From Moniliella sp. 'wahieum' (Eukaryota), in assembly GCA_003971905.1 (NCBI GenBank), contig RSEE01000104.1, forward strand, positions 1 through 64,000: a stretch of 64,000 nucleotides of DNA, written 5' to 3'. This document shows positions 1-45,918 of the stretch, one piece after another (positions within the stretch are counted from its first letter, which is position 1; each line of letters starts with the position of its first letter). The translations under genes were made by a program, and so were the position numbers. The notes beneath the pieces were generated by a model, which was not told the DNA's origin, searched no databases, and saw only the letters and a list, made by a program, of their open reading frames with translations.

Positions 1-2137
1 TAGCGAGCTACCCGAAGGGGAGAGAGTTATGCCGAGGCGATAGCGAGCTACCCGAAGGGGAGAGAGTTATGCCGAGGCGATAGCGAGCTACCCGAAGGGG
101 AGAGAGTTATGCCGAGGCGATAGCGAGCTACACCGAAGGGGAGAGAGTTATGCCGAGGCGATAGCGAGCTACCCGAAGGGGAGAGAGTTATGCCGAGGCG
201 ATAGCGAGCTACCGAAGGGGAGAGAGTTAGCCGAGGCGATAGCGAGCTACCCGAAGGGGAGAGAGTTATGCCGAGGCGATAGCGAGCTACCCGAAGGGGA
301 GAGAGTTATGCCGAGGCGATAGCGAGCTACCCGAAGGGGATAGTTATGCCGAGGGATAGCGAGCTACCCGAAGGGGAGAGAGTTATGCCGAGGCGATAGC
401 GAGCTACCCGAAGGGGAGAGAGTTATGCCGAGGCGATAGCGAGCTACCCGAAGGGGAGAGAGTTATGCCGAGGCGATAGCGAGCTACCCGAAGGGGAGAG
501 ATTATGCCGAGGCGATAGCGAGCTACCGAAGGGGAGAGTTTATGCCGAGGCGATAGCGAGCTACCCGAAGGGGAGAGAGTTATGCCGAGGCGATAGCGAG
601 CTACCCGAAGGGGAGAGAGTTATGCCGAGGCGATAGCGAGCTACCCGAAGGGGAGAGAGTTATGCCGAGGCGATAGCGAGCTACCCGAAGGGGAGAGAGT
701 TATGCGAGGGATAGCGAGCTACCGAAGGGAGAGAGTTATGCCGAGGCGATAGCGAGCTACCCGAAGGGAGAGAGTTATGCCGAGGCGATAGCGAGCTACC
801 CGAAGGGGAGAGAGTTATGCCGAGGCGATAGCGAGCTACCCGAAGGGGAGAGAGTTATGCCGAGGCGATAGCGAGCTACCCGAAGGGGAGAGAGTTATGC
901 CGAGGCGATAGCGAGCTACCCGAAGGGGAGAGAGTTATGCCGAGGCGATAGCGAGCTACCCGAAGGGGAAGAGTTATGCCGAGGCGATAGCGAGCTACCC
1001 GAAGGGGAGAGAGTTATGCCGAGGCGATAGCGAGCTACCCGAAGGGGAGAGAGTTATGCCGAGGCGATAGCGAGCTACCCGAAGGGGAGAGAGTTATGCC
1101 GAGGCGATAGCGAGCTACCCGAAGGGGAGAGAGTTATGCCGAGGCGATAGCGAGCTACCCGAAGGGGAGAGAGTTATGCCGAGGCGATAGCGAGCTACCC
1201 GAAGGGGAGAGAGTTATGCCGAGGCGATAGCGAGCTACCCGAAGGGGAGAGAGTTATGCCGAGGCGATAGCGAGCTACCCGAAGGGGAGAGAGTTATGCC
1301 GAGGCGATAGCGAGCTACCCGAAGGGGAGAGAGTTATGCCGAGGCGATAGCGAGCTACCCGAAGGGGAGAGAGTTATGCCGAGGCGATAGCGAGCTACCC
1401 GAAGGGGAGAGAGTTATGCCGAGGCGATAGCGAGCTACCCGAAGGGGAGAGAGTTATGCCGAGGCGATAGCGAGCTACCCGAAGGGGAGAGAGTTATGCC
1501 GAGGCGATAGCGAGCTACCCGAAGGGGAGAGAGTTATGCCGAGGCGATAGCGAGCTACCGCGAAGGGGAGAGAGTTATGCCGAGGCGATAGCGAGCTACC
1601 CGAAGGGAGAGAGTTATGCCGAGGCGATAGCGAGCTACCCGAAGGGAGAGAGTTATGCCGAGGCGATAGCGAGCTACCGAAGGGGAGAGAGTTATGCCGA
1701 GGCGATAGCGAGCTACCCGAAGGGGAGAGAGTTATGCCGAGGCGATAGCGAGCTACCCGAAGGGGAGAGAGTTATGCGAGGCGATAGCGAGCTACCCGAA
1801 GGGGAGAGAGTTATGCGAGGCGATAGCGAGCTACCCGAAGGGGAGAGAGTTATGCCGAGGCGATAGCGAGCTACCCGAAGAGAGTTATGCCGAGGCGATA
1901 GCGAGCTACCCGAAGGGGAGAGAGTTATGCCGAGGCGATAGCGAGCTACCCGAAGGGAGAGAGTTATGCCGAGGCGATAGCGAGCTACCCGAAGGGAGAG
2001 AGTTATGCCGAGGCGATAGCGAGCTACCGAAGGGGAGAGAGTTATGCCGAGGCGATAGCGAGCTACCCGAAGGGGAGAGAGTTATGCCGAGGCGATAGCG
2101 AGCTACCGAAGGGGAGAGGTTATGCCGAGGCGATAGC
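1..2137. repeat. 40-bp tandem array (TAGCGAGCTACCCGAAGGGGAGAGAGTTATGCCGAGGCGA)n, about 53 copies; satellite or possible non-canonical terminal repeat
   Basis: The unit can be read directly and runs from base 1 with no spacers. Variants are mostly 1-nt indels, and about 971-1555 is a perfect run. Confidence 0.97.
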
Positions 2138-2393
2138 TCGCTATAAAATCGTCCGCTCTATGCAGCATATGCCCTCCGTTTTTCGATTGGACCACCCGTT
2201 CAAAAGTTACACCCCCCATCCCTAACCTACCCACCCCGACCCACCCACCCCACCCTCCGATGGCCTCGACGATAGCTCGCTACGAAATCGTCCGCTCTAT
2301 GCAGCATATGGCCTCCGTTTTTCGATTGGACCACCCGTTGAGAAGTTACACCCCCCCATCCCTAACCCTACCCACCCCGACCCACCCCCCACC
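2131..2393. repeat. Two tandem copies of a 139-bp subtelomere-like repeat with C-rich CCCTAA-like tracts
   Basis: Copy 1 starts cgatagctcgcta at 2131 and copy 2 at 2270. Both contain aatcgtccgctctatgcagcatatg...cgattggaccacccgtt...ccatccctaacc(c)tacccaccccgaccc. Confidence 0.9.
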
Positions 2394-2794
2394 ACAAATA
2401 GAATCCGTACCAACTGCAGGCTGGAAATAAATAGAATTCGACACTAGTGTCAAATTGCATTTGTGGCCGTCATATCATCGATCAGCCGTACCAAATGTAT
2501 CACTGAACATACGTCTAGTCCCAAAGTCATGCTGTTGTTCGTTTGAACACCGTTGATACTTGTTCAGGTACGCCTGTTGATCATCTATGCAAGTGCATGC
2601 CATGAAGCGCTTGACAAAGTGGGACAGTCGTTGTTAGGTTGGCCTCAAAGACCCACGACGGTCGTCGTCATTGTACACTTCAACATCTATGACAGGTGCT
2701 CGGATGCTTCTGTGTGCATGTACTAGAGTGCATGGAGAGGTAGGCTGGGATGGTATGCATTGCTATGTTCCTATACATGTTGATGTTCAAGACG

Positions 2795-3080
2795 GGGAGC
2801 AGAGGCGTGGAGATGGGGAGCACAGGCTTGGGGATGGCGAGCACAGGCTTGGTAACGAGGAGCAGGCTTGGGGATGGAGAGCGTGGGTGGAGGGCGCAGG
2901 CTTGGAGATGATGGGCAGAGGTTGGTGGCGAGTACAAGCTTGGGGATGACGAGCACAGGCTTGATGGGGAGTGCAGGCTTGGAGATGATGAGCACAGGCT
3001 TGGTGGCGAGCACACGCTTGGGGAGAGAGCGCAGGCTTGGACATGATGAGCACAAGGTTATGGCGAGCGCAAGCTTGGAC
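2795..3080. repeat. Degenerate ~21-bp minisatellite (gagcacaggcttggggatg-like)
   Basis: The caggcttgg core recurs about every 18-21 bp and explains the repetitive ORFs in several frames. Confidence 0.85.
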
Positions 3081-4309
3081 GCAACAGACAGAGCACGACG
3101 ATGTACTTGCACATGGCCTACTCGAGCTTGAGCATGGCCCGGCGAGCGTTGGGATGGGGGCAATGACGAGGGAGAGTGGAAGGATGAGAGGCAGAACACT
3201 GGTGCAAGAGCGGGTCAGAATGAGGCAGGGTGGCATGGGATGGAAGGAGATGGGATGGGGGATGCGTACCGATGCGCTGAACGACGTTGCACATGGCCCA
3301 GACGGCGTTCGGGATGAGCATCCCAAGCAGGGTGACAGCAGGGGCAGCCAAGCGAGTGCACATGGGCCGGCAGAGCGTCGGACGGGGACGGCATGGCAAG
3401 CTGCACGGTCAGCTGGGACGGGTGCGAGGCAAGTGGGTACATGGGCGAGACGAGCTTCCAGATGGCCAAGCCAAGCGTCCAGACGGCCACTCAAGCGCGG
3501 CAGCGGTGGCAGCAGCCGAGACGGTGACCTTGGACGGCCAGGACGCCAGACCGAGGCCAGCAAGCATGCACAACGCCATGCACCATCCCTGCACCATTCC
3601 CTGCTTCCGCTTGGCCGGCCCGACGGTGGCGATGGCCGAATGAATGGTGATGGTGGCCGAGCCAATGGCGGTGGTGGCCGCTCAGTGGTGGGGATGGCCT
3701 GGGCGTGCGTGGGAGGTGGGAGCGCGGCGCTGGGGCGGGTGGGGAGGCAGGGGACGTGGGAAAGAGCGCCAGGGTGACGGGCAGTACCTGCAGAGACCCA
3801 GAAGCTGGACAGAAGACACAGAGGCGAGAGGGTCAGTAGAGGGCCGGTGTGGAAGATGAGGCGCGGGAGGCACCGAATGGGGGAAAGGAGGCTCAGAACG
3901 AGGGGCTAAACGAGGCAACAGACCTTGGGGGGCGGGCAAAGCCAGCCGGGTTGGGGGGGGGCGTGGTAAGAAACCAACCAGATCCGTCGCCTGGCCCGTG
4001 CATTCATCCGCCGCGGGCTGAAAATATTAACATTTGCAATTGCACCGATGCACGCGCAGCCTGCGCGGTCAGATTGGCTCGGCCGCCACCAAATCGACCA
4101 ACCGCCACCACCACCAACGCATCCACCGCCACACGCCCGTTCTCCATCGTGGTGCATCGTCTTGCGCCCCACGCGTGCGCGTCTGAAAGAGGACTACCTG
4201 GGGCACGCTACGCCCACCCTCGTGCTCTGACTCGTCCCAAATTGGTGGGGCACCGACGCTGTTTGTTGGGACCGTGCGCCGTCTGGACCGCACCTGAGGT
4301 AATTGGATG

Positions 4310-5900
4310 TGGTGTAACCTCAATCCTGGACCGAATCAAAAGCGCATCATCATTCTTGAAAGCCTTGATTCTGGGCTACGCTACACCGTTGACAGATCTC
4401 TGATTCGTCCAGAATTGGTTGAACCGCCGGCAGCATCAACATCGACCATCCGCTGTTTGGACCTAACCTCTGATGTTCACATGTGTGTGACCCCAATCCG
4501 GGCCCAATCTGCGTGCCCCCGACCTCCCATGGAAGCCCTGCTTCTGATGCAAGATGTGCATGTATGCAATCTATTGTTTGATGAGGATTGGTGCTGTGCC
4601 GGCGCCGTCAACATAGACCTTCATCCGAATCAAGCTAACATCAGATGTTGGGGCGTGTTCTGACCTCAATGCTGGACCAATCCTGGAGCGCCTTACCTCC
4701 CCTGGAAGCCCTGCTTGTAGTGCACGATGGGGCGCGACGATCTCTGGCATCCGACGACAACTGGTGGAGCGGCGGCGCCATCAACACCCACTGCCCGTGT
4801 TTGGACCTGCTGTGCACCATCGCTTCAGCTGGTGGACAGATGCAGATGGTAGTCGATGTAGGCCTGCCCTGGTGGAAGGCGAGGGAGTAGCTGCAGCGGG
4901 AGGCTTGGATGAGGCGTGCACCTGAGCGGGAGCGGCTGGGATCGATGCATGCTGGGATGAGATGGTGGCGTATGCCGGCGGGACCAAAATGGCGATATCT
5001 CAGCCGTCTCTCATCCGTTCTGGCTCACATTTGGCATGCTACCAACAGTGAGCAAGCACTGTTGGAGGCATGCATCAGATCCTCCATCTGCCTCACGATC
5101 AGGGGCAACGCGCATAGAGGTGTGCTAGCGCCAAATGAAGCACGGATATGGACGATTGCTCACCACGAGACGGCCATGCATGGTGACATGGGTGGTGGTG
5201 GTGGTGAAGTGGTGGTGGCGGTGGCGGCGCTGGATAATGGTTTGCGCACACCAACATCAGATGCGCTGCGCCGGCAGCGCGCACAGCGGTGGACAGCGGT
5301 CGGATGGCCACAGGCCAGAGTTGGGACTGGACACGGCGCACAGCGTGGCAGGGCCCGCTTGGCGGATTGACCCAGAATGCAAGGTAAAGACAGGCCTGAC
5401 CACTTGTGACAAGCGGCTCTTCGGCCCAATGCAGGACCAGTCACCAAGCGGACCGCAACGGCCCCAGCCGCCCCGCCGAGGACCTGTCACCAAGCGGACC
5501 CAGCCACGGCCCAAGTCGGCACGCCAGGACCCATCACCGAGCGCACCTAGCCACGGTCCGGGCCGGCACGCCCCCACCTGCCCCGACCAGAAACAACCAA
5601 TTACCTTGGTCGCGAATGGCCCTATCGTCGTTGCCGATCCCCCACGGAGCGCTGGCCCAGGCGCCACACAGGCCAGAGTCGGGACCGGGCACGGCGCAAG
5701 CAGCGTGGCAGCGCCCGCTACGTTTCCGCAAGGAACGCCATCAAAGAATGTCAGAGCTCACCAAACGTCAGACCCCGCATTTTGCCCTCCTCACATGTCA
5801 CATTCCAGGCGTGACAGCGTGAATACCGCATTCCAGGACTAAGCCCCACCCGAAATGTCAGAGATCACCAAACGTCAGGCACCACATTTTGGTCCCCATC
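4310..5900. repeat. Patchwork of diverged direct repeats (subtelomeric or TE-derived)
   Basis: ggaagccctgctt at ~4531 and ~4705; tgtttggacct at ~4454 and ~4797; cacaggccagagtYgggacYggRcacggcgca at ~5309 and ~5667; aatgtcagagMtcaccaaacgtcag at ~5747 and ~5854. Confidence 0.65.
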
Positions 5901-6008
5901 ACACTGTGGTGGCTGACTTTCGTGGGGTGTCCCAGTTTGGGCTAAAATACCTGTCTCAGTACTAATTGAGCCGCGTTTTGACAGGACTCATCACACGCCA
6001 ATATAAGA

Positions 6009-7207
6009 CTAGGTCCATGGGCTCGGCTTCGGGCGACGAGGGCCGAAACCAATGATTGCCGCCCGATCCCGGGGAGGTTGCGGTACCATGAGCGCCCAAC
6101 GATTGCGATTGGTCGATGTCAATGGCCGCTGTGCGCAGTTGTTCGAAACTGATCCGTCCAAAGTGAGCCGACTCGCCGCGGGAGGCGATTGCGTCACGCA
6201 CCCGCGGCTTCAAGCCGTACAGAAAGTGATAGTAGCGGTCCTCATCCGACGCGTTGGGGTTCCAGCGACGCAGCAGAACCGTGAACGTAGCGGAATAGTC
6301 CGCTGCAGATCCCGTCTGCCGAAGACGACCAAACTCCTCAAACGCCTTCAGCGCCGGGTTGCGCTCGCCCCACGCTCCAGGAAAGCTGCGCGAAACGCAG
6401 GCCAAGACCGGAGGGCGGGTGTGGTGCGCGCCTCCAGGGGAAGGGCCACCTCCGAACCGAACTGCTCGACCCAAGTGAGGGCCTCCCCCTAGCAGGCCCA
6501 TGAAGCGGTCGATCCATGCCGCCGCGCCCAGATGCGTGAGGGCGACGCGCGCGTAAATCTCGAAGGAGGTGACGACGTGCTGGGCCTGGACCGGTCCCGA
6601 GAGTTGGGATTCGCACCAGACGACGGGCGGAAAACGAACGGGCTCGAACATCTTCGGCTCTTCCGACACCTTGTTCGGGATGGCGGTCAGATCACCATAA
6701 GGCCCAGGGGCGGGAGCGGGGGCGGGGCCCGAGGACACCACGCCAGTTTAGCCTCCGTACCGAGGCGGCCAACCGGGCCTCTTCCGCGGCGAGCGCCGCC
6801 TCCTCCCGCCGCTGACGGAGGCGGTGCTCACGGCGCTTCGCCTCTTGCTCATCCTCGAAAGCGCCGCTGGTCCTTCTGGGCTGCAAGGTAGGCCTGGTGT
6901 TCCCGGGCCTTCGTCAACAGAACTGGCGCATTCTGCGGGCCTCATCGACCCGGCGCTGAGCGGCCTCGAGGTCCAGGCCGGACAGGTCGGAGGCAGGCAA
7001 TGTATACCCCGGGGGCGCGGGCGCAACAGACGGAGCTGCATGGGGGGGTTCAGAGGGGCCAGCCGGGTGGAACCACTCCGGGCCATCGTCGTCGAACGGA
7101 GCGTCAGAGGGGGGGTCGGACGGGGGTCGGATCGGGCCGCGCCGCGCGATGGGGTGCGGCGCGCTAGGGTTACTGGGGTCATGGGGGTTGTCGTGGATCG
7201 AGGACAT
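6009..7207 (-). pseudogene. Retrotransposon Gag (Retrotrans_gag-like capsid domain), frameshifted and truncated
   Basis: ORFs 6914-7207, 6692-6886 and 5962-6741 join by frameshifts. The LxQtGSvxdY..F and F..GLK..vr motifs and PMDL are typical of fungal Ty3/gypsy Gag. Confidence 0.85.
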
Positions 7208-7248
7208 CTCTGGTCGGGCTCGCCTGTTGACGGTTAGACGAACGATAA

Positions 7249-7430
7249 TGTCACAGTCAGGGCTAAGGCGAGGGAGACCAGGATCGGACTAGGCCAAGGG
7301 GTGTAGCAATCGTTCGTGGGGAAGAAGCAAGAACAGAGGACATGGTGCGAAGTGGAAGGAACAGGGAAGGAGCGAGACGCTCGAGACGAAGAAATTGGAA
7401 ATGGGGAGCGAGATCAGCCAAACTATGACA
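7249..7430 (-). repeat. LTR, 182 bp
   Basis: TG...CA ends with an imperfect 9-bp terminal inverted repeat. It lies 41 bp upstream of the gag ATG. Confidence 0.75.
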
Positions 7431-7817
7431 CCTATCGATTCGGCTATGACATGCGAGGCCTGGAGCTACCGCGCGTCCGCCCGACGCATGACTTACATTC
7501 CGGCTTCGCAGATCCACACCATCTTTGGCCCGCTTAACATCCAGCACAATTGCGTGAAGGCCCAGTGCCGGGTTGTCCCCAACAGCATTACGGATACAAC
7601 CACTGGCTTGACGTTCGATGGGGTCCAGCACAACAACTTGTCTGGGACGTCGGCGGTACAGCGCTACGTGCTCAACCACTTTGTCAACTCTGTCTCTCCC
7701 CACACCGATATCTGCGACTTGCGGACTTGGCTTTTGCCCAAGACTGGGCGGTCGAGGGCGAGAATGTCCTTCTGCCGACGATGTTTGGAAGCAGTACAAT
7801 CCGTAATGAATGTTTAG
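7431..7817 (+). mobile_element. C-terminal fragment resembling basidiomycete DNA-transposon (CACTA/EnSpm-like) proteins
   Basis: The pattern NIQHNCVKAQC...VQH...RYVLNH matches the N[VI]QH[DN]C-x4-C...H...Y[VI]LN tail I recall from basidiomycete transposase-associated proteins. The LTR abuts its 5' side. Confidence 0.5.
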
Positions 7818-7965
7818 ATACTTCCGAATGGCTACTAATGATGGTAGTCACCACTGTTGATGTATACTCTACACCATCAGTCTATCAGTTTTTAGCGACT
7901 TGGCTGAAAACGGACACAGCACATGTGGCTGCCCACAAGATTGCCAAATTGCTGCTGGAGTCTTA

Positions 7966-8037
7966 GGCTCCATTGGTGCAACGGCCAATTCTTACTATTG
8001 GCTGGAGAAACCTCAGGTTCAATTCGTGGGTCGGCCA
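7966..8037 (+). pseudogene. Decayed tRNA-like gene (His- or Gln-like) or SINE head
   Basis: 72 nt with an A-box-like TGGTGCAACGG, a B-box GGTTCAATTC in a near-complete T stem, and a T6 run at 8040-8045. The acceptor and D stems are mismatched. Confidence 0.45.
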
Positions 8038-9092
8038 TCTTTTTTAAGATGACTCGAGGCTGGCCGCCGTTCACAACATATTGCGACTAGAATAGCGGAC
8101 AAGGTTGCGACGAGCTTTATAGGCAGCAATCTAGGGACAACCTCGCTGGGCGGCCTTGCCGCGGTGTGGTCCAAGAGGTTGGGACTAGCTGTGTCAGAAT
8201 CACACCGTGCTAGGGGCCCTTGCCCACTAGGCCCGTATGGGCACTATGGCGTGATTCTATCAGTTGGGAGATCCTGTGTCCACCTCTCGACTGTGCCCCC
8301 TTCCTGAGGAGGTCATATACCTCCTCGTCCATAGATGTATGCATCCATCTGCACACTTTCCCCCATCTCCGTCTCCTGACAAGCTGTGTTGGCGAGGCTG
8401 TGACAAGGTTGTGCCCCTCAAATCTAAAGACAAGCTTGTGGCGAGGCCGGCAAGGTTCTGGGCTAGAAATTTCGATTAGCTATGCTAAGCGTGAGCACCG
8501 GAACCACGCGCGGACCGCTGAGGAGCTCTGGCTGTGCCTGCTGCTCTCCGGTCGCGTCTGGCGCTCCCTCTCGCCCGCGGGCTACCGCATTGTCACGCGG
8601 GTTAGTTGCCAGCAAGCGCCAGCCAGCGGGGCGGGCCCGAGGCCTTGCTCTGGAGCAGCGTGCTCTCTCGCTGATCACCTGCGGCTCAAGTTCAATACCT
8701 TCAATGCCCGCCACCGGCGCCACGCCTGCGTTGATCGTGCTGGACGAGGCGAGCCAGGTGCACCGCGATCGGGTCCTAGACGACGGCGAGCTGCAAAGCG
8801 GTGCGTTCCTCGTGTGGGACTGGGGCCAGCAGGCGGAGCGGTGGTTGGCGGCGCACTAGCCTCACCCAAGGCGAGGCGGAGCGGCACTCACTTATAAAAT
8901 ACGTGCCGATCGGGGCGCCACAAGGTCAGTGCTTAATTGTGCAGGGCCAAAGCGGCGGTTGTGGGGTAAATAGACGTGGGGCTGTGGGCCGTGCGCACCG
9001 CCCCCCTCGGGTTAGCTAAGCAAGAGGGCAATATGTAGCCGCCAAAGTACACACGCGGCGAAGAAGAAACGGGACGGAGCGTCTTGCTCGCC

Positions 9093-12000
9093 ATGCTGGA
9101 CCGCCTGCCGGCCGAGTTGGCGCAGCACGTGCTGTCGCTCGGCGTGCTGTCCGTGGCGGACGTGTGCGGTGTGCAGCGACGTGTCGGTGCTGGCGCGCAC
9201 ACGCACGCGCCGACTACGTCTGGCGCACCCTCGCTGCCCGGTGGCAGCTCATCCCGTCGCGTCGCATGCCGCTCGTCGATGCGGTGGCCTACTGGAACGG
9301 CCAGTACGACTTGGCGCTCCAGCCGCCGTTGATCCTTGCGCCAGCTGCGTCTGATACCCCCGCTGCGCCGCTCAGCCCCGCGCGAGCGCAACGAGCGCGA
9401 GAGGGGTGCAGAGCGCGCGCGACCAAGGTCAGTGGTACGACGCCATTCTGTTTCTGCATGTGCTGGTGCAGGGCCGCGGCCGTGCGCTGACGGGCGAGCC
9501 GGTGGGGTTTGGCTTCCGCTATTGGGGCGGGTGGTGCCGTGGGCATACGAGGACAGCGAGTGGAGCAGCAACAAGATGGCTATGAAGAAGACGCGGAGCA
9601 AGGGGCGGAGCGGGAAGGACCGCACTTCGGTGGTCGAACGCACCGATGGCCATCGTCGGTGGGTCCTGCCCCCGATGCTCACTCGCTCCTGTGGCCCAAC
9701 GAGATGGGACACGAGAGACCAGAGGAAAGCGGAGACGAAGAGGAAGGCGAAGGGGACCGCGATGCGCTCCGGCTGGTAGAGGAGGACCTTCTGCTTCCGA
9801 TGGACTACGATCATCCGGACTTGGTGCAGGACGCGCCCAGCGCCCGTACCGGTCGCCACAAGAGCGATACCGTATTTACATTTGAGCTGGATAGGGTGGA
9901 CCAGAGCTTGGTCGTGCTGGCGTGCAATGCGGACGTGGGCGCGCACGTGGCCAGCTTGGACTGTACCTCGGGCGAGCTGCTGTGGAGCGAAGCCGTGGTG
10001 ACCAACCCCGATGCAACGCAACTCTGCCTCAGCCGCGACTACCTCTACTGCTTTTCCAACCCGTCCCACCTCGCACTGCACTGTACGGTACGTACCCCCT
10101 CGCTTGCCTCCATTTGCCTCTTGGTTGATTGTTGATTGTTGATCGTTGATCGCCCGCCGGGTTGTGGCCGTGGCGTTGGGCAGGAAATGGTGCTAACCTT
10201 TTTCCCTCGGTCGCAACTTGGATGTGTGCTGCGCCCGACCCAGACGGGATTTCGATGAACGTGAGTCGTTCGGCACCATCACGCGCTATCGTCGTGCCGA
10301 CCCCGAGCTCGATCCCAATCCCAATCCCGATCCCAATCCCAATACCCATCTCGAATCGACCGAAGGTGGAGCAAGCTGCACCCACGCTGAGGATTCTGGT
10401 GGTCCTGGTGGGGGTGGGGGTGGGGGTGGCCGCCAAGCTGGGGTATGGACGTGGGATGCGGAGCTGGAGACCGACACGCCGCTACGGAACGTGTGGAAGT
10501 TCACCTCGATGCGCAGCACGCCGTGGGCTTGCTGGTGACGGACGAGTTGCATGGGGTGTACTTATTTGGCGAGGCAGGTGCAGGCGGTGCGACGACACCA
10601 AGTTGTACTTGGACCTTGCCCCCGACTGAGGTACACCCACTGCTCACCACCATCGCCGTGACCATGAGCTTGACCATAACGATGACGATGACTATTCCGA
10701 CGACGACAACCCGGAAGAACTTTTAACGTGGTGATGTTCGACCAGGATAAGCCCGTGGTGGACTTGATGGGATGTGGTGTGGTACGCACAGTCTCATGTT
10801 ACGCGCTGGGGCGCACGCACCCGTCTCTCCGCTCTGGGACCCATGCATCTTACTTCTCCCCTCCGCCTCAGCCTGCTCTCCTCCTACTTCGCCTCCTTTC
10901 ACGCCTCTTTCCAGTCCGCGCCCGACGTTCCTAGCCCCAGTGGCGGCGGTACCAATGCCGATGCCAGTGAAGGCGCCAATCCGACCCAAGTCATTGTGGA
11001 CCTCAGCCAACTCCCCTTGACCGCGGCCAAGGTCGATTTCGGTCCGTCCCCTTGCGCTTCCTCCTCCACTTCTGCTTCCGCTTCCGCTTCCGCGTCGCTC
11101 CCCAACCCCAGCAGCGAGGGAGAGGCAGACGCAGCGGATGGAGTTTGTCGAGATGGACCTGGCTGGGACGGAAGACGGGTACATTGTGCCCGATGAGGTG
11201 GGCACGGTACCCATGTGGGGACGGCAGGCCACGTTACGATTTTGCCGCCTGTTTGATCCTCCTGATCGGGTACGTACACTTGAGTTGTCTCCCCTGGTTC
11301 GGGTTCTTTTTTGGTCCCTCTTGCTCTGCTCGTCTATGGCCGAGGGGACGTCACAGCAACAGCGTACGTACTGACACTCTGATCTGTGGTGTGTGTTATG
11401 TGTGCTTGTGTGTGCTTGGGGGACGATGCGAATGAGCAGTGGAGCTACGCGGGCGACCTAGACCTGTTCCTAATTGACTACCAGGCCAACACGTTGCTCC
11501 TCCTGTTCAACCAAGGCCACACGCCTGCTCATCCGGCACTACCAGCACCTTCTCCCTGCTCCCTACACCCCCTCCACCGGGCCCACCAACACCGCTCATG
11601 GTGCTGATCAACCGTGGGCATTGGAACTGACCCTGGACCAAGAAGCCTACCCGAGCCTGTTGGCCAACCGGAAGAAGTCGGGTACCTGTCGGTGGACCAG
11701 TACGGGCTAGGCCAAGCTGTCTGGATCGGCACACGGCCCGTGCTGGTAGACTATGGTCGGGCCAAGTGTGCGAAAGAGGTGCGGGTGTGTGATTTGGCCA
11801 TGCCTCTCGGACCTAGGAAGCGGAAGTGGACATCTGCTCCTTCGCCTTCTGCTCCCCCTCCTCCTCCTCCGCCCGAGCCCACACAGCGGCCCCAACGAGC
11901 GCCACGCCACTCCGAAACTGGGCCTGAAAACCTACAAGAAGAGGAAGAGGAAGAGGAGAGAAGAGGAAGAGGAAGAGGAGTACGAAAGCGACGCCTCCAT

Positions 12001-12574
12001 GGACTCGAACCGGGCTACCGTCTCGTTGGTTCGCCCTGCCGCCGCTCCAACAAGTACATTTCCCGTGCCCGCTGCAGCGCCACCACCAGGACCACCGGCA
12101 CCGCCACCATCCCCACCGACGTTGACACTACTCAGCACGGACGCGGTGGCGCTCCGTGCGTTGCGAAATCATGCCCTTCCCGAGGGTGGCGGGAACCTAT
12201 TGACAGGCGTGGTGCTCACGCATTCGGCTGTCTGGATCGGCGTGCAGACAGCGCGGCACCTGTTGCGGGCGGACGATGAGGGTGGACAGGAGTACGGCGG
12301 GTGGGACGGGTGGGGCGTAGGAGGAGGTGGGCTAGGTGGCGATTGGTTTGCCGTCGGCTTCGATTGGGCTTTGACGGCGGCCATGGCGCTCCACCCGCCT
12401 GCGGTGGCTGCGGCTAATGTGCAGCTGGCCTGTAGGCACGGTGGTGGTGGTGCTACTGGTGGTGGTGGTGGAGAAGAAGAAGAAGGTGGTGGTACAACGG
12501 GTGCGGTCACGCGCCAACTGGAGGGACTAGGGATTGGAGATCAACTGAGTCGATCCGCAGTCCTCCGTCGCTAA
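9093..12574 (+). CDS. F-box protein with a probable beta-strand-rich C-terminal region (frameshifted in this assembly; introns at ~10088-10183 and ~11269-11439)
   Basis: The N-terminus LDRLPAELAQHVLSLGVLSVADV..CAATCRCWRAHARADYVWRTLA is an F-box. Coding-like segments continue to the stop at 12574, with GTACGT donors. Confidence 0.75.
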
Positions 12575-15959: not shown

Positions 15960-17204
15960 CTAGGCCTTCTTCTTGCGCCAGCCAAACTGGTCAGCATGAC
16001 GCTGCCGAAACCGATCGGACACCCACTGGTCCGACGCTTTCGTTCGCACCTCTGCCGCTCCACGTGCTTGGCAAACGACGTGCTGAACCGGAAGTTGTCC
16101 TGCTCCAACTCCAACGCACCAAGCAGCGGCACAGCCGAAGCAGAACCGGAAGGTGAACCGGAAGTTGATGAGAAAGGTAAAGGGGTAGATGTAGGCATCG
16201 CCTTCGTCCCCCCGCTCACCTCACTTCGTTCTTGTCCTTGCCCTGGTCCAGGCCCTTGTGCTTGACTTGGAGCCTGGCCCGGTGTACCTGGGCCCCAGGC
16301 GGTCGACGACGAAGCTCCAACGCGCGGCGCGCCGCTTCGGTCTGCTCAATGTTCCGAATCTTAGCTTCGATGCCCAGGTCCCACTCGGGTACCGTGCCCA
16401 GCATCCCGGCCGATAAGGTCACGGAACCTTCTTCCTCGTGGGTATGTGGGGTCGGGGTGGGTGAGAGGTCGCGTCGGTCGCGGTCGCGGTTGCGGGCGGT
16501 GGCAAAGCGGGGTCCCCCGCGCTCCGACGGCTACAGCGTCGGGGTCCACCGACTTACCTTCGCCCACTTGGTCTTGCACATTGCTCCCCCAGTACCAGCA
16601 CCGGTACCAGTGGCAGTATCAGTACCCGTGGCAGTGGCAGAAGCAAGCTGACGACGACGACGGTCCATCTCTTGTTCAATAAACGCCATCATGTACTTAT
16701 CCACATCGACCGCGCCTGTTTCGGACTGGAAACTGTCCTGGGTTAGGATACGACGGCGTTTGCGGTCGTCGGCGGCGGGTCGGACCCGCCGGCGCGCACC
16801 CCAAGTCCAGTGCCATTGCCATTGCTCGTGGTAGTGTTGCTGTGCTGGGGAGGGTTGCTGGGGGTGTTGGAGGTGTTGGGTCCTTTTGCGTTTTTTGCCA
16901 GGCCCCTCGTTGAGGCGGTGCAAGTCGATGCCAGCACCGGGACCGGTGGAGAGGTTTGAGCTGCCGCAATACAAGTATGTCCGCCAGGGCACTACTCCTC
17001 CATCGTCGTCGTCGTCATCTCCATCTCCATCTTGGTCTGTTCTTGCCCTTCCTTGTGGGCTTGGTCGTTGGGGTGGGTCGTCTGGTTGGGGGACGGGTGG
17101 GTGTGGGTCGTGGCGTGTGGCGACGGCGGCTGGCTCTCGTCGAAGGGGAGCCGCAGCGGCGCTGCGTTCTTCTTGCCGCGCTTCTTGAACAGCGGCGCAG
17201 CCAT
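15960..17204 (-). CDS. TLS1: Tls1/C9orf78 (Hep_59 domain) splicing-associated protein
   Basis: MAAPLFKKRGKK; FQSETGAVDVDKYMMAFIEQEM; MLGTVPEWDLGIEAKIRNIEQTEAARR; C-terminal ASDQWVSDRFRQR...KKKA*. Confidence 0.85.
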
Positions 17205-17570
17205 GCGGACGATGCGAGGGCGGTGGTGGGGGTGCCATCTCCAGATGGGAGAGGCACGCATCCAATATGCACCCCCCGCTGGTCACGTGCATGCATTCCG
17301 CCGGCGGAATGGAAACTGGGCCCCCCAAATTCCAAAGCCGCCGGGTAGGCCTGGGGGTGGCCGCGCACAGACCAGCGCTGGCTATCAGACCATCCTGCCT
17401 GCGCTCCTCGACAGACCATCCGCATCAGATCCATCCATCCAGGCATCCCTCCATCTGCCCTCGCTCCTCCTCTCTCCCTCGCAGTCCCATCGCAACCCCT
17501 CCCCTCCCATCCATCCCCCACGACAGACACGGCAGCCACGCTGCTCCACCTGCGCCCCGCAGCACTCCCC

Positions 17571-23790: not shown

Positions 23791-24512
23791 ACTGAGAACT
23801 GGCACCGTACGGTACGGTACTGTACTAGGGGTAGGGAACTGGCGGCAAATTAAGAGGAGGTATACCGCTCGTTTGGTTCGGGGCAAAGGACAATGGGTAA
23901 AGGGCAAAGGGCAAAGGGTAATGGGTAAAAGGGTAAAGGGTAAAGGGGAAAAGGGTTAAAAGCGCGGGGAGGAAATGGGGTAGGGAAAGGGGGTAGGGGA
24001 AAGGGCGCGGAGAGAAGGTACGCGTTACGAGCAAGAAAAGTAGCCAAAACGCCAAGAACAGAAAAGAAAAAGAAAGAAAAGAAAAGAGTCCCAAAGGGGG
24101 GGGGGGGGGGGGGCGGGGCGGGGGAAGGGTGTGTGGGCGCACCCCAAACACGCAGACAGTGCACCACACCACACACGACCGTACGTCCCGCCACTTCCAC
24201 TTCCACTTCCACTTCCACCACCGCGCCGCGCCGCACGCCAACCAATAACATAGCCCGGCACAAAAGCCAACACGGCAAGAAAGGAAAGAAAAGAAGGAAA
24301 GAAAAGGCACATTAAGGTTAGGGTAGTATGGGTAGTCAAGGTACCGGGGTAGTAAAACTGGGTAGTAGGATAAGGGTAGGATAAGGGTAGTAGCAGGGGG
24401 GGGGGGGGGGGGGGGCGGTGAAACGGATTCCAAACAAAAAGGAGAGGAGAGGAGGGCCAACGAGAGGAACCGAGGAAAAGAACCGAGCAACCGAGGGGAA
24501 GAGGAGAAAAAG

Positions 24513-24752
24513 AAAAGCAAAGCAAAGCAAAGCAAAGCAAAGCAAAGCAAAGCAAGCAAAGCAAAGCAAAGCAAAGCAAGCAAAGCAAGCAAAGCAAGCA
24601 AAGCAAAGCAAAGCAAAGCAAGCAAAGCAAAGCAAGCAAAGCAAAGCAAAGCAAAGCAAAGCAAAGCAAAGCAAAGCAAGCAAGCAAAGCAAAGCAAAGC
24701 AGCAAAGCAAAGCAAGCAAGCAAAGCAAAGCAAAGCAAAGCAAGCAAGCAAA
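24513..24752. repeat. (AAAGC/AAGC)n microsatellite, about 240 bp
   Basis: Read directly. It accounts for the LLCFA-repeat ORFs. Confidence 0.95.
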
Positions 24753-28747: not shown

Positions 28748-29387
28748 TGTCCTGGTGTCGCTAGTCGCCCTGTGCCCGTTGATCTGACGTCTCTGCGGTG
28801 CGCTTTTTGTGGCAACCCCGAGCGACAGTAGTCGCCCCATGCCAGTGTTTACCTTACTTACCAATTTCTAGCTTGTCCGTGCGGCAGCCGTCTCTGCTGT
28901 TTTCCCTTCAATGTTCTTCCTTCTTCCTCTGTTCAATGCCTTGTTTCCCTTTTCGTCCCTGTCTGGTAGCAATCGTTCGTGGCTTTCCCCCGGTCCATTG
29001 GCGTCTCCCCCCCTACTCTATCTAGTACAGACAACTCCTCCTCTTAGTTGCTCCTCCAGCCCCGTCGTCAGCTCTCAGCTGCCGCCCCAGTCTCAGTCGG
29101 CTGTCCCAGCCCAACCTCGGTCCAGCAGCGTACGTCCTCCGCTGCCTCCACCCCTCCCTCAGCCCAAATGCTTCAGACACACTACTGCCGCCCAAGCCAG
29201 TGCTACGCAGCCTTTCCACACCTGCAGCCGCCTCTGCTATACGCCGAGAGGCCTCTCCTTGTCCCTCGCTCTCGGAACCACCAACCAGCACAAGCGCGTA
29301 ACTACCGTGAGTCGACCTTAGGACCTCCAAGGGATTGTACCCCTTAACCCCCCAGGGCGGGCCCCCTGGCAGCGCCCGTCCGTGACA
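28748..29387 (-). mobile_element. Solo-LTR-like relic (left edge uncertain, 28748-28808)
   Basis: The right end is ...cgtgaca. It is homologous to 33435-34142 (gtgctacgcagcctt, ccgcctctgctatacg, tgagtcgaccttaggacct) and shares 17 bp (gtagcaatcgttcgtgg) with the LTR at 7303-7319. Confidence 0.65.
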
Positions 29388-32300
29388 GCACCCAGGTGGA
29401 GGAGCACGCGCCATACTAAGACAGCAGCCAGTCGTCCATCCCGGTCTCCCCTACGTGATCCTCTGGGTGTCCCACGCGAGCCAAGCTTCCCTGCTACGGA
29501 CTGCAGAACCGTGTTCTTGCCACGGGGAATAGGATGCAACGTGAACCTACGTTGCATGCCAGAGTGCTGGTCTCTGGGACAGCGTTGACGATGGCAAAGG
29601 GGGCTCAAGGGAACGGTGGACTGGTGGACAAGGCGGGCGGGGGGAGGAAAGATGGCCCTGCAGCACCTCAACGTTCACCAATGACCAGTGGTCCCATAAA
29701 ATCCACTGGTCAGACTGCACTATAGGCCGACATTCTGGCTCGCTAGCGACCCAAAGGAAGGAAGAGAGCAAGCCGTCGCGCCCTTTCATTCAGCCCCTCG
29801 ATTCCGTCCTGACGCACCCAATGCCACTACCAAGTCAATCATCAGATTTCATTGCAGTTGGTATCCGTACAGTGAAGTGGCAGGACAACCTTGCGCGTGG
29901 AGCTCACTGTCCCTCGCAGCGAAACGCAAGTGATGGGGGGCGAAACCCAACCAGGCCAATCCCTACCGTAGCGATCACAACACTCCGTCTCCGTCCCCCC
30001 CGGTTACAGGCGGCGATTTCTGCGCTGATTATTGTTCGTCAGTGGTGGCAGGGGTGGCGGGGGAGCGTTTGGTCAAGCAGCTTGGTCAACTGTGCGCTGG
30101 CAAGAACGATGAGGTCCATGGTGCTCCACCAGGTGGGTCGTGCATTTTGATCAACGTCCCTTCAGTCCCTACTTCCGACTAAGTGCTCAGGCCTCTCTCA
30201 GACCTAAGTACTATGCATATGAGTTGCGTTGCTTTTTCTCCCTCGGGTTTCCGTGTTGCGCAGTATTAGCCGACTAGGTGCTTGTTGTTCTTCAGACGGC
30301 GTTGGTGGGTGACTCAGACCCGCACCGCACCACCATCACCAATGCGATTGCACCTATCACCCTCGCGGACCGACAGGACTGCAGGACTGCAGGTCCAATC
30401 AGTCCGAGTTCCACCTCTTCCTTCATCCAGTGAGCAAAAAAGGGGGTGATCACCCCCCGCCCCCTCCTCATCTCCATCCCATCCTTTCATTCCGCGTCTT
30501 TCGTCTGTCCACGATGCGCCCCAACCCCACTCCCAACCCCCAAACCCTACTACGCCTAGCATCCGGAACCTGGGCTGGGTCGACAAACATAGTTCCGTCT
30601 CCTTTTTCCCCCAGAAGAGGGAAGGACCTTCCAACGCGCTTCTCACCGGCCCACGGAATAGCTCCACCAGGTCTACCGCCTTGACCAGGTTCTTGAGCGA
30701 CAGACGCTATGGCGACCACCAAGGCGACAGCCACACATGCGTCCGGTCTGTTTGATTTTCATACCAATCTACGCACACGAGATTTCAACCCGACGTGTTG
30801 GGCCCCGACGACCGGTCGAGTCACCGGTGCTTCACATGGCCATGATCCCCTTATATGGGTCCTCCAGAGGCGACAATGGCATAACCTCCTGCTCCTCCGA
30901 CTGTTGATACGTGCATGTGCAAGCTACCAATATAAGGTCAGTCGAGGCTTATCCGTCTATGGAACTGTGGACAACGTCTCATATGGACTGCCGTCGCAGA
31001 GAGATCCAGTGCTGAGACGTGGACATCCCAACGGCTATACTATTGCGGTTGTACGCCAAGGTGCTCCCACTACGACCTATATATCCTATGATCCAGTTGT
31101 ATAGCCACCACACTCACCCCCACAGTCGCGGACGTGCAACAGGCACGCGATGACCTTCATTTTTGGATCGATAACAGTCTCCTTTGGAGCCAGATCATGC
31201 ATCATGCCGCCCGGGTGGTTGGTGCGGACCCGTGTGTCCAGGACTATACGGCACGCATTGCAGGAGCGAACTCGTACCGACGGAACGGATTTAAAGATTT
31301 TGCCCTGTTTTGTCCAAACTTACCAACCCCCTAGGTACCTTCACGCTGTAGACGCGGTTATATTAAACCACGACAGCCTTTTCGGCCATGGGATGACTAC
31401 AACGTACCTGCCCGAGATCTGCCTGTCAAGCTTCGAGCGATTTCGTGCACGTTGGATTGGGATCTGCCGGAACACAGTACAAATCTGGTCAAGACCGCCC
31501 GTCGATCCGTACATGTGAATCTGTGACGCCACACTGGTGTAGTGGCGCCGGTAGCCCAAGTCCGGAACCTTCTGGTTTGTTCCGTGCAAAATATTCCTTC
31601 CTGGCCGGCAGGAATATTCTCTAGCCTCTGTAGCTCATGCAGTGCAATGCAATACATTACCAACTGCCTGTCCTCTGGTCTTCTACAGAATCACTTAGTC
31701 ATACAATGCTGACATACCCACTCTCGTGCTTCCTCACATCTTCGCCTTTCTCCGCCTGCGATACGGCGACGTCACCACCCCAAAGGACAAGATCTCTACG
31801 CTCTCGTCGCTGGTTGACTTGGCCGTTGGGTCGCGGACAGGAACGCAGTGTGGTTAGCAGTTTCTCCACCGCGTGAGTGCACCGCGCCAACTTGGGTTTT
31901 CACTCGCTCTATGGATATAAGATACGCTGATCCTCCATGTCGCGCTGACCGCTGCGGTGCAGAAGAGCGGGATGAGCATCTGGTAGGGTGAGAAAACGTC
32001 GTTGATGCTACGCGCGGATCATGCACCTGTTACACTCACGCGGGCTATTACACAAATATTATTACTGGCATCGTCCCTTGTGCGTACGACCTTGTTCCAC
32101 ATCTCCCCTTGACCCGTGTTTGTGTGTCTCGTTGTCTCGTCGCACGTTATTGGCCGTGCCGGTCCGATTGCTTTTCCTCTGGGATATCCAAGGCGCACCA
32201 TTCCATGCAGCCTAAAGAATGATCGAATGAATTCCCTCTACATCCAACCCAACCTTACCTTGAGACACACATCGTTTTTTCCCCCTCAGAGGGTTCATCA

Positions 32301-33434
32301 CCCGGGGGACGTGGTCTACGCCGTGGGGGGTCTCTCTCGCAACGGGCGATTTACCCCGCCACTGCAACATCTCTACTCCGGTCTCAAAGCTCACGTGTCC
32401 GGCAAACCTGCTGATGACCCCTCCTCCTCTCTCTCGCGGTTAAAATGCCAAGGGACCACACCAGCATTGAACCAGCAACATTCCGTCTCACGTTACTCTT
32501 TACGTTGCTCTTCAGTCGGTATCTTCGTCTTGGATCGGTGGAACTGGTGGTTAGCCCTTCCTTGGTCTTCATCAGCACCTCGTATATGGTACTGTCTCAT
32601 TCCTATCCCATCCGCTATTGCGGGCACTGCGAGCTCTACGCGCTGTGGTCTTCTCCGTCGCGTGAATAATACTGTTAGGAGTGCACGGGGAGTACTTCGC
32701 CCGCCACCCTCCCTGCGCAAGATGATTCGGACCCGCGCCCGTCCGTCTTCAGTGATAAGAATGCATTTCCTTCACTCCATCCATGCAGCAGATGGAGATG
32801 GGGAAAAGGATAATGATCATATTCATCGAGGGAAAAGGCGGCGGGGGATATGTATACCTCGCATCAGAAGAAGAGACCATGCCAACCGAGTCACATAATG
32901 GAGACAGAAAGGGGAGCCTAGACAAAGGAGAAACAGAGTCTAAGCGAATAGGAGGATCCGGCCAACCTGGTGCAGTGTGTATGATCAGGTGGGTCTGACC
33001 CCGACAATTCTAGTCATGCTTCTACAGTCCTTCCTTGCAGACGGCCGGGTCGTGCAAGCCAATGGCATTGGCACACTGCTTCTTTTTCTATTTCCATACT
33101 GCTGTACCCCATCACCTCCCCTGTTTGTTCAACCGCGCAACCACTTCTATTGTGATGCTTTTCCCTACAACTTGCTAAGTGCGTGACAATTCGCGACGGC
33201 CGGGCTCGAGAATTTGCTCGCCACATGGAGCCAAGGCATCTATCTGTGCCGCACGGGTGACATACCCCTCCTCCGCCTTATTACGGATGTTATCGACAAA
33301 ACGTTTCTCGAACCCCTTCTTCACTCTGTGATAACCCCTCCCAATCGTGCCCATTTCATTGAACCTGTCACGGGCGGAGACTGGCGGGCAAGCCCGGGGT
33401 CGCCTTTCGCCCAGGTGAATTGGTAGCCACACCG

Positions 33435-34142
33435 TGTGATGGCCACCCAATTGTCAGTTTCTTCCTTTGCGACTATAGTCACCACGTGCCCGTTTCTCTT
33501 ACCCTTCTAGGTTGCCCATGCGGCAACCTAACCCCTTGTTTTTCCTTGTCCCTGTTCTACTAGTCTATTGCATTGTTTCTCTATTAGTCCCTGTTTGATA
33601 GCAAAAATGGTCATGATTATCCCCGCGGTCCATTCGCGTTTCCCCACCCTACTCACCAATTTGAAGAACCCACTGGTACAGGCAACTTTCCCTCAGTTCG
33701 ATGCTCTCCTCCTCTCACCTCGTCCTCCAGCCTCTGTCCTCGGCTCGACATCCTCAGTTAACCCAGTTCGCGGTACCATGTCGACGCCCAGCTCAGATCA
33801 GCCGCGTGCGGTCCCACTTCTAGCCTTGCCACCACTAGTCCTAGTCCAGATCCAGCTCGGGCCGTGTTGGCCCTCCACCGCTGCCCTTCTCGTTTCTACG
33901 TCACGAAGGATTTAGACGCGTTACTACTGCTCAAGCATGTGCTACGCAGCCTTGCCACACCCGATTCCGCCTCTGCTATACGTCGAGCGGCATCGTCTTG
34001 TCCCTAGCCTCGCTCAGGCCCACCAATTAGCCCAAACGCGGAAACTACCATGAGTCGACCTTAGGACCTTCAAGTGATCGTACCTTTTAACCCCCCCCCC
34101 CCCCCCCCCCAGGTGGGCCCCCGGTGGTCCTCGCTCGTCACA
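33435..34142 (-). mobile_element. Solo-LTR-like relic, diverged relative of 28748-29387
   Basis: TGTGATG...CGTCACA ends (6/7 inverted) and collinear blocks of similarity to the 28.7-29.4 kb copy. No TSD seen. Confidence 0.65.
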
Positions 34143-37100: not shown

Positions 37101-37941
37101 TGAATGGCATACTATACTAGTGACATGCAACCAGTGTCACCTCAGCAGCAGTGTTCTTATTTTCATCTCCGTCTCCAATTAATCTGGCATTAGAGCTGTA
37201 CAATAATACCGTGGTGTGTTTGTTTGCCTCTGGCCCTAGGCAAATGTGTGGTCTTAGTGTAAAGGACCGTGACGCGGATATGGCATGTTCGATCATAGTA
37301 TGAACATGCACGAGTGGGCACGACAGCGAGAGTACATGTGACTGGGGGTAAGGAACTCCGCCCCTCAGCCCTTAAGGGTCACTGCGGGCTGGCTCGCCTG
37401 AACAACACGTCCACTCCGCTTCTCCTCAACGAAGCATGCTTCATTATCTGTGGGCAACCAAGATCGAGTCCCTTCGTACGACTGAAGAGAGATCTAAGGG
37501 TGAGCTTTGAGTCCGTACTAAGTTGATTCTACCTCAGATATTTGGTTTTTGGTCTTAACGCAAGTGGGCTGTACGCTAAGCCACTGGATTTGGGCCGCTG
37601 TTTTCTGATCAAGACGTGAGGGTTTCGTTCGTTTGATTATTCTCCCCTCATGCCGTTTATGTTCCTGTTGAGGGCGCAGGACTTGTCCATTAGTTTGGCA
37701 TTTTCGGCCTTGGTTGTTCCAAATTTTATCGGAACCTTTCCCTGCTTGATCTGTGCTTCTTTGAGAGCCATTCTCATTCATTCCTTCTTCTTACGATTGT
37801 ATGTTGCGTCCTTAGGGTTGCTGTCTGTATAGCCTTTCTTCTACGTTCTTCGCTAGCAACCCATTTGCAACAACATCTCCTACGAATCCATCCTTGACCC
37901 ATCAGAGAAAACCCTCATTTTGCTCTCTCGCTCATGGGCAG

Positions 37942-38095
37942 TGTCACTAACCTGCGTGAGCGCGACCACCTCTTGGTCCTCCCGAATCCCTCCGTTCAGT
38001 CAACCTTTCCCGTCGATCTCCCTCCACCCTTCGGTCCAATCTGGACAGATCCCGCGTGATCCTACACAAGTGTTGAGTTTTTTTTTTTCGTGACA
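37942..38095. mobile_element. Possible short solo LTR
   Basis: Bounded by TGTCAC...GTGACA inverted ends. No TSD. Confidence 0.3.
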
Positions 38096-45626: not shown

Positions 45627-45918
45627 GGGGGGGCGTGGGCAGTGTGCTCGAGGGGGCTGTCAGGTGGGCACCTTATAATCCAGCGAGCGGGCTCTGAGAT
45701 CTGATGTGATGCGGGCGGAGCCTATGGCCCAAGGGAAAACCCTACGACAGGCGCTAGGGTTGGAGCGCCACGTGCTCTGTGCGACGCTGCTCCACCGGGG
45801 CAGGGGGATGGGGAAGGTGATGGGAATGGTGATGAGGGGGAAGGTGATGGGGACGGGGCTGGAGATGGGGATGGAGATGGGCTTCTGCTGCTCCGTCTCC
45901 GCTTCCATCGTCCCCCGC

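Follow-up and report, generated by a model that had tools for sequence, protein, structure and literature searches.

The left edge of a 64-kb stretch of fungal DNA (64,000 nucleotides, referred to below as the window) is formed by a tandem array of a 40-bp unit, and we examined this array as a candidate chromosome end. We favour, at about even chances, the interpretation that the array is a chromosome terminus, that it would serve as a telomerase-independent substitute for TTAGGG repeats kept by recombination, and that a 139-bp repeat directly inside it would be a former end. The array is highly uniform and non-coding. Together with the 139-bp repeat it forms a layout of a distal and a proximal repeat, the proximal repeat carries telomere-like relics, and a gene of the window places the host in the subphylum Ustilaginomycotina, in which chromosome ends of a comparable kind have been described.

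A uniform 40-bp array reaches the edge of the window

The array and the parts of it that are referred to in the text are as follows.

1..2137, no strand assigned: distal tandem array with a 40-bp unit, non-coding (Tandem Repeats Finder (TRF) and unit listing)
988..1547, no strand assigned: fourteen consecutive perfect units, units 26-39 (unit listing)
1548..2137, no strand assigned: proximal 15 units, 11 of them variant (variant listing)

TRF reported a single array at 1..2137 with a period of 40, 54.1 copies, 97% matches, 2% indels and a score of 4039. This agrees with the about 53 near-identical units up to the window edge that had been noticed in an earlier reading of the sequence alone (the sequence-only reading). 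Base 1 of the window is reached by the array, and within the window no other sequence lies distal to it. Cutting the array at a fixed 10-nt anchor gave 54 units, 34 of which are identical. Compared to the consensus, the other 20 units carry 29 deleted bases, 2 real 1-bp insertions and 2 substitutions, both of which adjoin deletions. Three more apparent insertions are an artefact of the position at which the last unit was cut and were not counted. Three base runs of the unit, CCC, GGGG and CC, are where the deletions cluster.

Along the array, 9 variant units were found among units 1-25, none among the 14 units 26-39 and 11 among the 15 units 40-54. The proximal variants of units 40-54 are either real variant repeats or consensus noise; a variant-rich base is typical of ordinary telomeres. 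One run of variants (G17 deleted, G17 deleted, C11 deleted, perfect) was seen twice, in units 41-44 (1589-1745) and in units 50-53 (1939-2095), nine units apart. This may be a higher-order duplication within the array, or recurrent consensus errors may coincide.

The 1-bp deletions at base runs, together with a break in the reading frame of the MPDU1 gene of the window at 46722-46731, indicate that the assembly is an unpolished long-read consensus. The true array is therefore probably closer to perfect than it reads, that is, near perfect. Such extreme uniformity of the units fits ongoing homogenisation. A fold-back or inverted duplication at the inner junction of the array was ruled out, as the entire array lies in one orientation and has no palindromic end.

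The repeat unit is non-coding and C-rich towards the edge

The consensus unit has the composition G16 A11 C8 T5 on the + strand, which confirms the 16 G and 8 C of the sequence-only reading. The strand running 5′ to 3′ toward base 1 is C-rich, with C16/G8 per unit. Three mini-palindromes are found in the unit (TAGC-GA-GCTA, CCC-GAA-GGG and GCC-GA-GGC). A special DNA structure of the unit was rejected, as three units fold like their shuffles (z = 0.06 for the + strand and 1.27 for the - strand).

A coding function was also rejected. In perfect units the longest open reading frame (ORF) has 39 aa on the + strand and 32 aa on the - strand. Pfam rows for ELAPOR1_C and FAM186A were obtained on ORFs of the array, and neither has a stretch that passes alone. 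An ORF of 131 aa in the array, which is opened by sequencing errors, belongs to no Pfam family. It was used as a protein query against 1.84 billion representative proteins and gave 38 matches at E <= 1e-3, 5 at E <= 1e-10 and 0 at E <= 1e-30. We examined 13 of the 38 matches. Twelve are unrelated repetitive proteins; in the exception, P0120, about ten 14-aa repeats precede a unique tail, and the protein shows 60% identity over 40 aa to translated 39-nt variant units. P0120 is a singleton on one 7,193-nt contig, with no Pfam family and no prokaryotic locus found to encode it. It may represent the translation of a related satellite, or the similarity may be due to chance given the short repeated motif, and we treat it as a weak lead. 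In the whole 64-kb window, Rfam found 0 families and ARAGORN 0 tRNAs.

A telomerase with an exceptionally long RNA template could in principle make a 40-bp repeat, and this was the first of the two modes of upkeep proposed in the sequence-only reading. Uniform long repeats are expected of a templated enzyme, and budding yeasts such as Candida and Kluyveromyces carry uniform telomerase-templated repeats of ~23-25 bp. Uniformity is, however, the sole point in favour of this explanation. Telomerase-made repeats are ~5-26 bp long, and their G/T-rich strand runs 3′ outward. The unit found here has 40 bp, which exceeds any telomerase repeat that we know of, and the strand to be synthesised would be the C-rich one. 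Rfam detected no telomerase RNA in the window, although this is weak evidence, as the gene could lie elsewhere. In addition, the nearest documented relatives with long-unit chromosome ends are described as lacking TERT (PMC13234504). We consider a long-template telomerase very improbable.

A proximal 139-bp repeat carries telomere-like relics

Inside the array lies a second repeat, with the following features.

2131..2395, no strand assigned: proximal 139-bp repeat, 1.9 copies (copy A 2131-2269, copy B 2270-2395; TRF, 92% matches)
2220..2225, + strand: CCCTAA relic of copy A (hexamer scan)
2360..2373, + strand: CCCTAACCCTACCC relic of copy B, reading GGGTAGGGTTAGGG on the outward strand (sequence and hexamer scan, CCCTAA at 2360)
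2124..2143, no strand assigned: junction between the array and the 139-bp repeat (sequence and repeat search)

Copies A and B are 92.9% identical over 126 nt. Each is composed of ~90 bp of spacer and ~50 bp that are C-rich on the + strand, and thus G-rich outward, with a TTAGGG-like relic. On the + strand the two copies contain C60/G19 and C55/G19, which is the polarity of a left end. The two 139-bp repeats with CCCTAA-like relics in left-telomere polarity that had been noted from the sequence were recovered by TRF as the 1.9 copies, with one CCCTAA per copy on the + strand. These hexamers are relics and not an array. In the 64-kb window, CCCTAA/TTAGGG was observed 10 times compared to an expectation of 21.4 ± 4.6, and the observed count is equalled or exceeded in 99 of 100 shuffles. 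No telomere array of CCCTAA/TTAGGG was found within the window, where the hexamers occur in isolation only.

At the junction, the array terminates with ...GCCGAGGCGA and the 139-bp unit begins with TAGCTCGCTA, the exact reverse complement of TAGCGAGCTA in the 40-bp unit. CGATAGC is common to the array and the 139-bp repeat at the join, which amounts to a microhomology of 7 nt. The repeat search (family D6) sets the start of the 139-bp copy at 2124, inside the array, and GCCGAGGCGATAGC aligns with GCCTCGACGATAGC at the boundary between copies A and B. The 40-bp unit thereby shares CGATAGC..GCTA and neighbouring bases with the boundary of the 139-bp unit. In a narrow test of this kinship, copy B was represented by its first 62 nt and compared with all rotations of the unit; the observed score was reached in 2 of 1000 shuffles that preserve composition, and in a local test of the inverted 11-mer in 3 of 500 shuffles. 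As the narrow target was picked after the similarity had been seen, the kinship is only suggestive. It is suggestive of a 40-bp unit that may have been derived from the boundary of the 139-bp unit.

The shared boundary sequence argues for a unit native to the locus rather than for an adapter or a foreign insert. This bears on the possibility of a technical artefact, in which an adapter or foreign concatemer, or a chimeric read, would have been fused to the end of the contig. Error-rich sequence at a possible contig end is what such an artefact would leave. Against it stands the join to adjoining genomic sequence within a microhomology, and the unit was not found in print: none of four 20-21-nt strings of the unit was recovered in a full-text search of the literature. 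The 31-nt core of the unit had no exact match in 185,579 prokaryote genomes, and six units had no blastn match in 72,556 plasmids. With both searches empty, a prokaryotic, plasmid or vector origin was rejected, and an artefact of any kind seems to us scarcely credible.

The flank resembles a subtelomere

Inward of the 139-bp repeat the following features were found.

2396..12500, no strand assigned: subterminal stretch with no recognisable protein domain (Pfam on the ORF lists)
2790..3078, no strand assigned: degenerate minisatellite with units of 21/39/57 bp and 64-80% matches (TRF and repeat search)
3441-3489, 3625-3699 and 5432-5572: further minisatellites (TRF)
16219..17424, - strand: first solid gene from the end, a Hep_59 domain protein (30.8 and 41.3 bits vs a cut-off of 22.7)

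Pfam was run on all 226 stop-to-stop ORFs of at least 120 aa in the window and on 99 ORFs of 50-119 aa at 2.1-12.5 kb. No ORF of at least 50 aa at 2.1-12.5 kb scored above the curated cut-off, and no transposase or transposon, reverse transcriptase (RT) or helicase domain was found there. The only rows in 2396..12500 are below the cut-off, namely SOBP (23.1 bits vs 35) and XAF1_C (19.7 vs 25.8). The first marginal domain further inward is an SH3 domain at ~13.6 kb (21.9 bits vs a cut-off of 22.9). None of the dispersed repeats of this flank recurs elsewhere in the window. The sequence-only reading had described 6 kb of gene-free repeats and debris of transposable elements. The repeats stand, as minisatellites; the transposon debris is without support, given that neither a Pfam domain nor a recurring dispersed repeat was found, and the stretch is gene-free only in the sense of having no recognisable domain. 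The telomere and subtelomere architecture proposed there is borne out by the order of the elements, from a uniform array at the edge through a G-rich-outward repeat with relics to a domain-poor, minisatellite-rich stretch.

Tandem arrays are classic break points of assemblies. The window might accordingly start inside a longer array or contig, for example within a large satellite block at an assembly break, and the end position would then be only apparent. The flank, however, is subtelomere-like, with its G-rich-outward repeat, relics in the right polarity and ~10 kb that are rich in minisatellites and contain no recognised domain. Furthermore, neither the 40-mer nor the 139-mer has a further copy in the other 62 kb of the window, the best matches being exact words of 10-14 nt. 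An internal satellite is unlikely in our view.

Placement of the host

To place the host, the PQ-loop ORF at 45848-46423 was used as an MPDU1 query. Among 855 candidates, 112 proteins matched at E <= 1e-3, all of them MPDU1 homologues. The best named relatives belong to Ustilaginomycotina, with 55-65% identity (Thecaphora, Testicularia, Ustilago, Malassezia, Tilletiaria, Violaceomyces, Parajaminaea and Sympodiomycopsis). In a tree of 43 rows, the window falls within a clade of 31 Ustilaginomycotina rows supported by a Shimodaira-Hasegawa-like approximate likelihood ratio (SH-aLRT) of 99, where it forms a long branch in a polytomy. By this marker, the host is a basidiomycete of Ustilaginomycotina, and it is none of the species whose MPDU1 turned up in the homologue search.

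Over ~200 aligned columns, the identity of the MPDU1 of the window to the named lineages spans 51.5-64.4%; Parajaminaea stands at 55.9% and Sympodiomycopsis at 51.5%. Between these two representatives of Microstromatales the identity is itself no higher than 63.9%. A clade that unites the window with both of them was not rejected in the approximately unbiased (AU) test (p = 0.484), which shows only that MPDU1 cannot decide the order. A TLC-domain ORF, tried as a second marker, recovered 2 distant agaricomycete proteins only and has no placement value. The tropomyosin, Hep_59, PBDC1 and myosin tail fragment were too short or too broken to be used as markers.

Published chromosome ends in the same subphylum

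Noncanonical chromosome ends have been described in Microstromatales yeasts, which belong to the same subphylum as the host (Brejova et al., Nucleic Acids Res 2026, PMC13234504). In Jaminaea angkorensis (60.3% GC), all 20 chromosomes end in tandem arrays of noncanonical motifs. Its 36 distinct distal motifs have 52-178 bp and form arrays of ~1.6-21.6 kb, which are mostly specific to one chromosome end and sensitive to BAL-31. At some ends a different ‘proximal’ repeat lies inside the ‘distal’ one. J. pallidilutea (motifs of 41-100 bp), Parajaminaea phylloscopi (GC 61.0%) and Sympodiomycopsis kandeliae are reported to be alike, and across the species the motifs range from 41 to 178 bp. According to the paper, all four species lack TTAGGG-like repeats as well as genes for Est2 (TERT) and Tpp1. 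Rolling-circle amplification recovered circles for 5 of 6 proximal and 34 of 36 distal motifs. Telomeric transcripts were detected for 17 of 42 motifs and only from the outward G-rich strand, and single-stranded overhangs were not detected. The upkeep that the authors propose is based on recombination and resembles alternative lengthening of telomeres (ALT), and they suggest that the proximal repeats served as telomeres in the past.

This paper and its preprint were the only literature on telomeres of this group that our search found. With telomerase-free long-repeat ends in print since 2025-2026, the idea is no longer unprecedented. Upkeep without telomerase, by recombination or rolling circle, was the second mode considered in the sequence-only reading. 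It has here a direct precedent in the same subphylum (PMC13234504), and by analogy with it we prefer this mode for the 40-bp array, with the even confidence stated at the outset.

Weighing a terminal array against a subtelomeric minisatellite

The most serious alternative is an ordinary subtelomeric minisatellite. The host would then have normal TTAGGG telomeres and a telomerase, and a (CCCTAA)n cap would lie distal to the array, unassembled or trimmed. The array would vary by slippage and unequal exchange and have no capping role. Interstitial telomere-like relics beside subtelomeric repeats are common in genomes with canonical telomeres, and TTAGGG-like relics are present in the window. The assembly is visibly rough. 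Moreover, the other Exobasidiomycetes covered by the published account are canonical (PMC13234504), and MPDU1 leaves the order of the host undecided. On the other hand, an array of 2.1 kb should be spanned by long reads, and a short telomere beyond it would normally be expected to be co-assembled. The relics are down to one or two hexamers, and the near-perfect uniformity of 54 units would be unusual for an old internal minisatellite. We regard the minisatellite as doubtful, but as an explanation with a real chance of being right; the finding would then be an ordinary one.

Several observations weigh against the array as a recombination-kept terminus. The host cannot be assigned by MPDU1 to any single order, its identity to all named lineages being 51-64%, and in the available account the Exobasidiomycetes orders outside Microstromatales keep canonical telomeres (PMC13234504). 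TTAGGG-like relics are found in the window, whereas their complete absence is described for the published species (PMC13234504). Neither the 40-mer strings, nor their 10-mers, nor the 139-bp strings occur in the motif tables of the supplement (0 occurrences). The Microstromatales motifs are, however, unrelated between ends and species, so that a new motif would be expected. A further point is the strand bias. The outward motif strand is called G-rich in the paper, as typical and not as a stated requirement. A hand count of some of the published motif rows gave G17/C4 for a 41-bp motif, G43/C38 for a 132-bp distal motif and G14/C17 for a 58-bp proximal motif. Outward G bias is thus not universal among these motifs, but the C16/G8 of the outward strand of the 40-mer makes it the most C-skewed compared to those counted by hand. 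The kinship of the two repeats weakens as well when it is tested more broadly: when both strands are compared to copy B in full, the observed score is reached in 24 of 300 shuffles. Finally, the terminal position, the absence of telomerase and the mechanism of recombination are what we infer, and we do so from a single locus.

A possible origin of the array and its implications

If the array is a terminus, it may have arisen in four steps. Telomerase-made TTAGGG ends would first have been lost in the lineage. A short G-rich telomere remnant would then have been amplified in tandem together with ~90 bp of adjacent sequence, giving the 139-bp repeat, of which two copies survive. Later, a 40-bp motif that probably arose at the edge of the 139-bp unit would have expanded distally to form the present end. 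Since then, homologous recombination would have maintained the length and uniformity of the array through break-induced replication (on sister or own repeats), through rolling-circle copying of extrachromosomal circles, or through both. In this scheme the 40-bp array would buffer the loss from end replication and cap the end.

The array, if terminal, would add a further natural eukaryote that protects its ends without telomerase repeats, with the shortest such motif, the opposite strand bias and adjoining relics. Whether end-binding proteins in these fungi depend on the G-richness of the outward strand could also be tested with it. The published Microstromatales genomes show the end state only, with TTAGGG erased (PMC13234504). 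With a relic, a 139-bp and a 40-bp repeat at one locus, the order in which the events took place could be tested.

A more far-reaching version, to which we assign a small chance only, is that the host is a species other than the four published ones, and possibly not a member of Microstromatales, and that its chromosomes end in a C-rich-outward 40-bp array. In that case, telomerase-free long-repeat ends would be more widespread in Ustilaginomycotina than reported, and the rule that the G-rich strand runs 5′ to 3′ toward the chromosome end could be inverted. The fossil TTAGGG tract, the first-generation 139-bp unit and the derived second-generation 40-bp unit, side by side, would then be a stepwise record of the birth of a telomere after loss of telomerase.

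Other features of the window

The GC content of the window is 60.3%. Besides MPDU1 and Hep_59, the genes that can be recognised are listed here.

44818-45126, - strand: PBDC1 fragment
51484-51867, + strand: TLC/ceramide-synthase domain
56127-56711, + strand: tropomyosin
63683-64000, - strand: myosin V DIL tail, running out of the window

Few domains are recognisable across the 64 kb. In the MPDU1 (PQ-loop) gene at 46085-46885 (+ strand), two reading frames overlap at 46722-46731, which leaves no room for an intron. The frame break is most simply read as a 1-bp indel error. Such an error in MPDU1 makes ORF-based gene finding in the window unreliable.

TRF gave 117 rows in the window, many of them with units of 6, 12 or 18 bp, and an (AAAGC)n microsatellite of 51.6 copies is located at 24509-24752. 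At 30000-39500 the GC content falls to 0.42-0.55, compared to ~0.60-0.68 before, and is lowest in 35500-36499 (0.420). In this stretch, 0 of 130 ORFs of 50-119 aa had a Pfam match. Lying ~35 kb from the array, the dip could mark a centromere-like island richer in AT, or else a mobile element that has decayed. A direct repeat pair of 186 nt (29172-29353 and 33911-34096), 79% identical and 4.74 kb apart, resembles long terminal repeats; neither an RT nor an integrase domain was found in the interval that separates the two copies.

Comparison with known systems

Ordinary subtelomeric minisatellites lie proximal to a canonical terminal array and usually contain substitution variants. The window resembles them at its edge, where a tandem array with a unit of tens of bp adjoins telomere-like relics and genes are few. 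It differs in that no canonical array is seen and in that the 40-bp array is almost without substitution variants. The telomerase-templated repeats of Candida and Kluyveromyces are likewise uniform end repeats much longer than 6 bp; the 40 bp found here are far beyond their range, however, and the strand skew is opposite.

Among animals, Chironomus midges have satellite telomeres with units of hundreds of bp. Composite telomeres of Meloidogyne are cited in the Microstromatales paper (PMC13234504). Both have ends of long tandem repeats without canonical telomerase repeats, as would be the case here, but they are animal systems with no sequence relation to the array of the window.

Type I-like survivors of telomerase-negative fungi are closer. 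They include UTASa in Mycosarcoma (Ustilago) maydis, Y′ in S. cerevisiae and TelKO in Naumovozyma castellii, as taken up in the discussion of PMC13234504. In these cells a tandem unit derived from the subtelomere replaces the telomerase repeats, and the 139-bp unit of the window, a short telomere-like tract with adjacent sequence, has the same layout. The survivors differ in that their units have hundreds to thousands of bp and that they are laboratory mutants, whereas the distal unit of the window has 40 bp and would be a natural state.

The closest likeness is to the ends of Microstromatales chromosomes (PMC13234504). The host is none of the four published species, and its 40-bp unit is one base under the shortest published motif (41 bp). 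Shared with these ends are a long-unit array that is not TTAGGG, its kilobase size, the subphylum and a GC content of ~60%. With at least 2.1 kb, the array of the window lies within the published 1.6-21.6 kb. Its 139-bp proximal repeat is G-rich outward (G60/C19), in keeping with the outward strand of the published motifs. Finally, the succession of a distal array, a proximal repeat and unique DNA in the window corresponds to the proximal and distal layout of some of the published ends.

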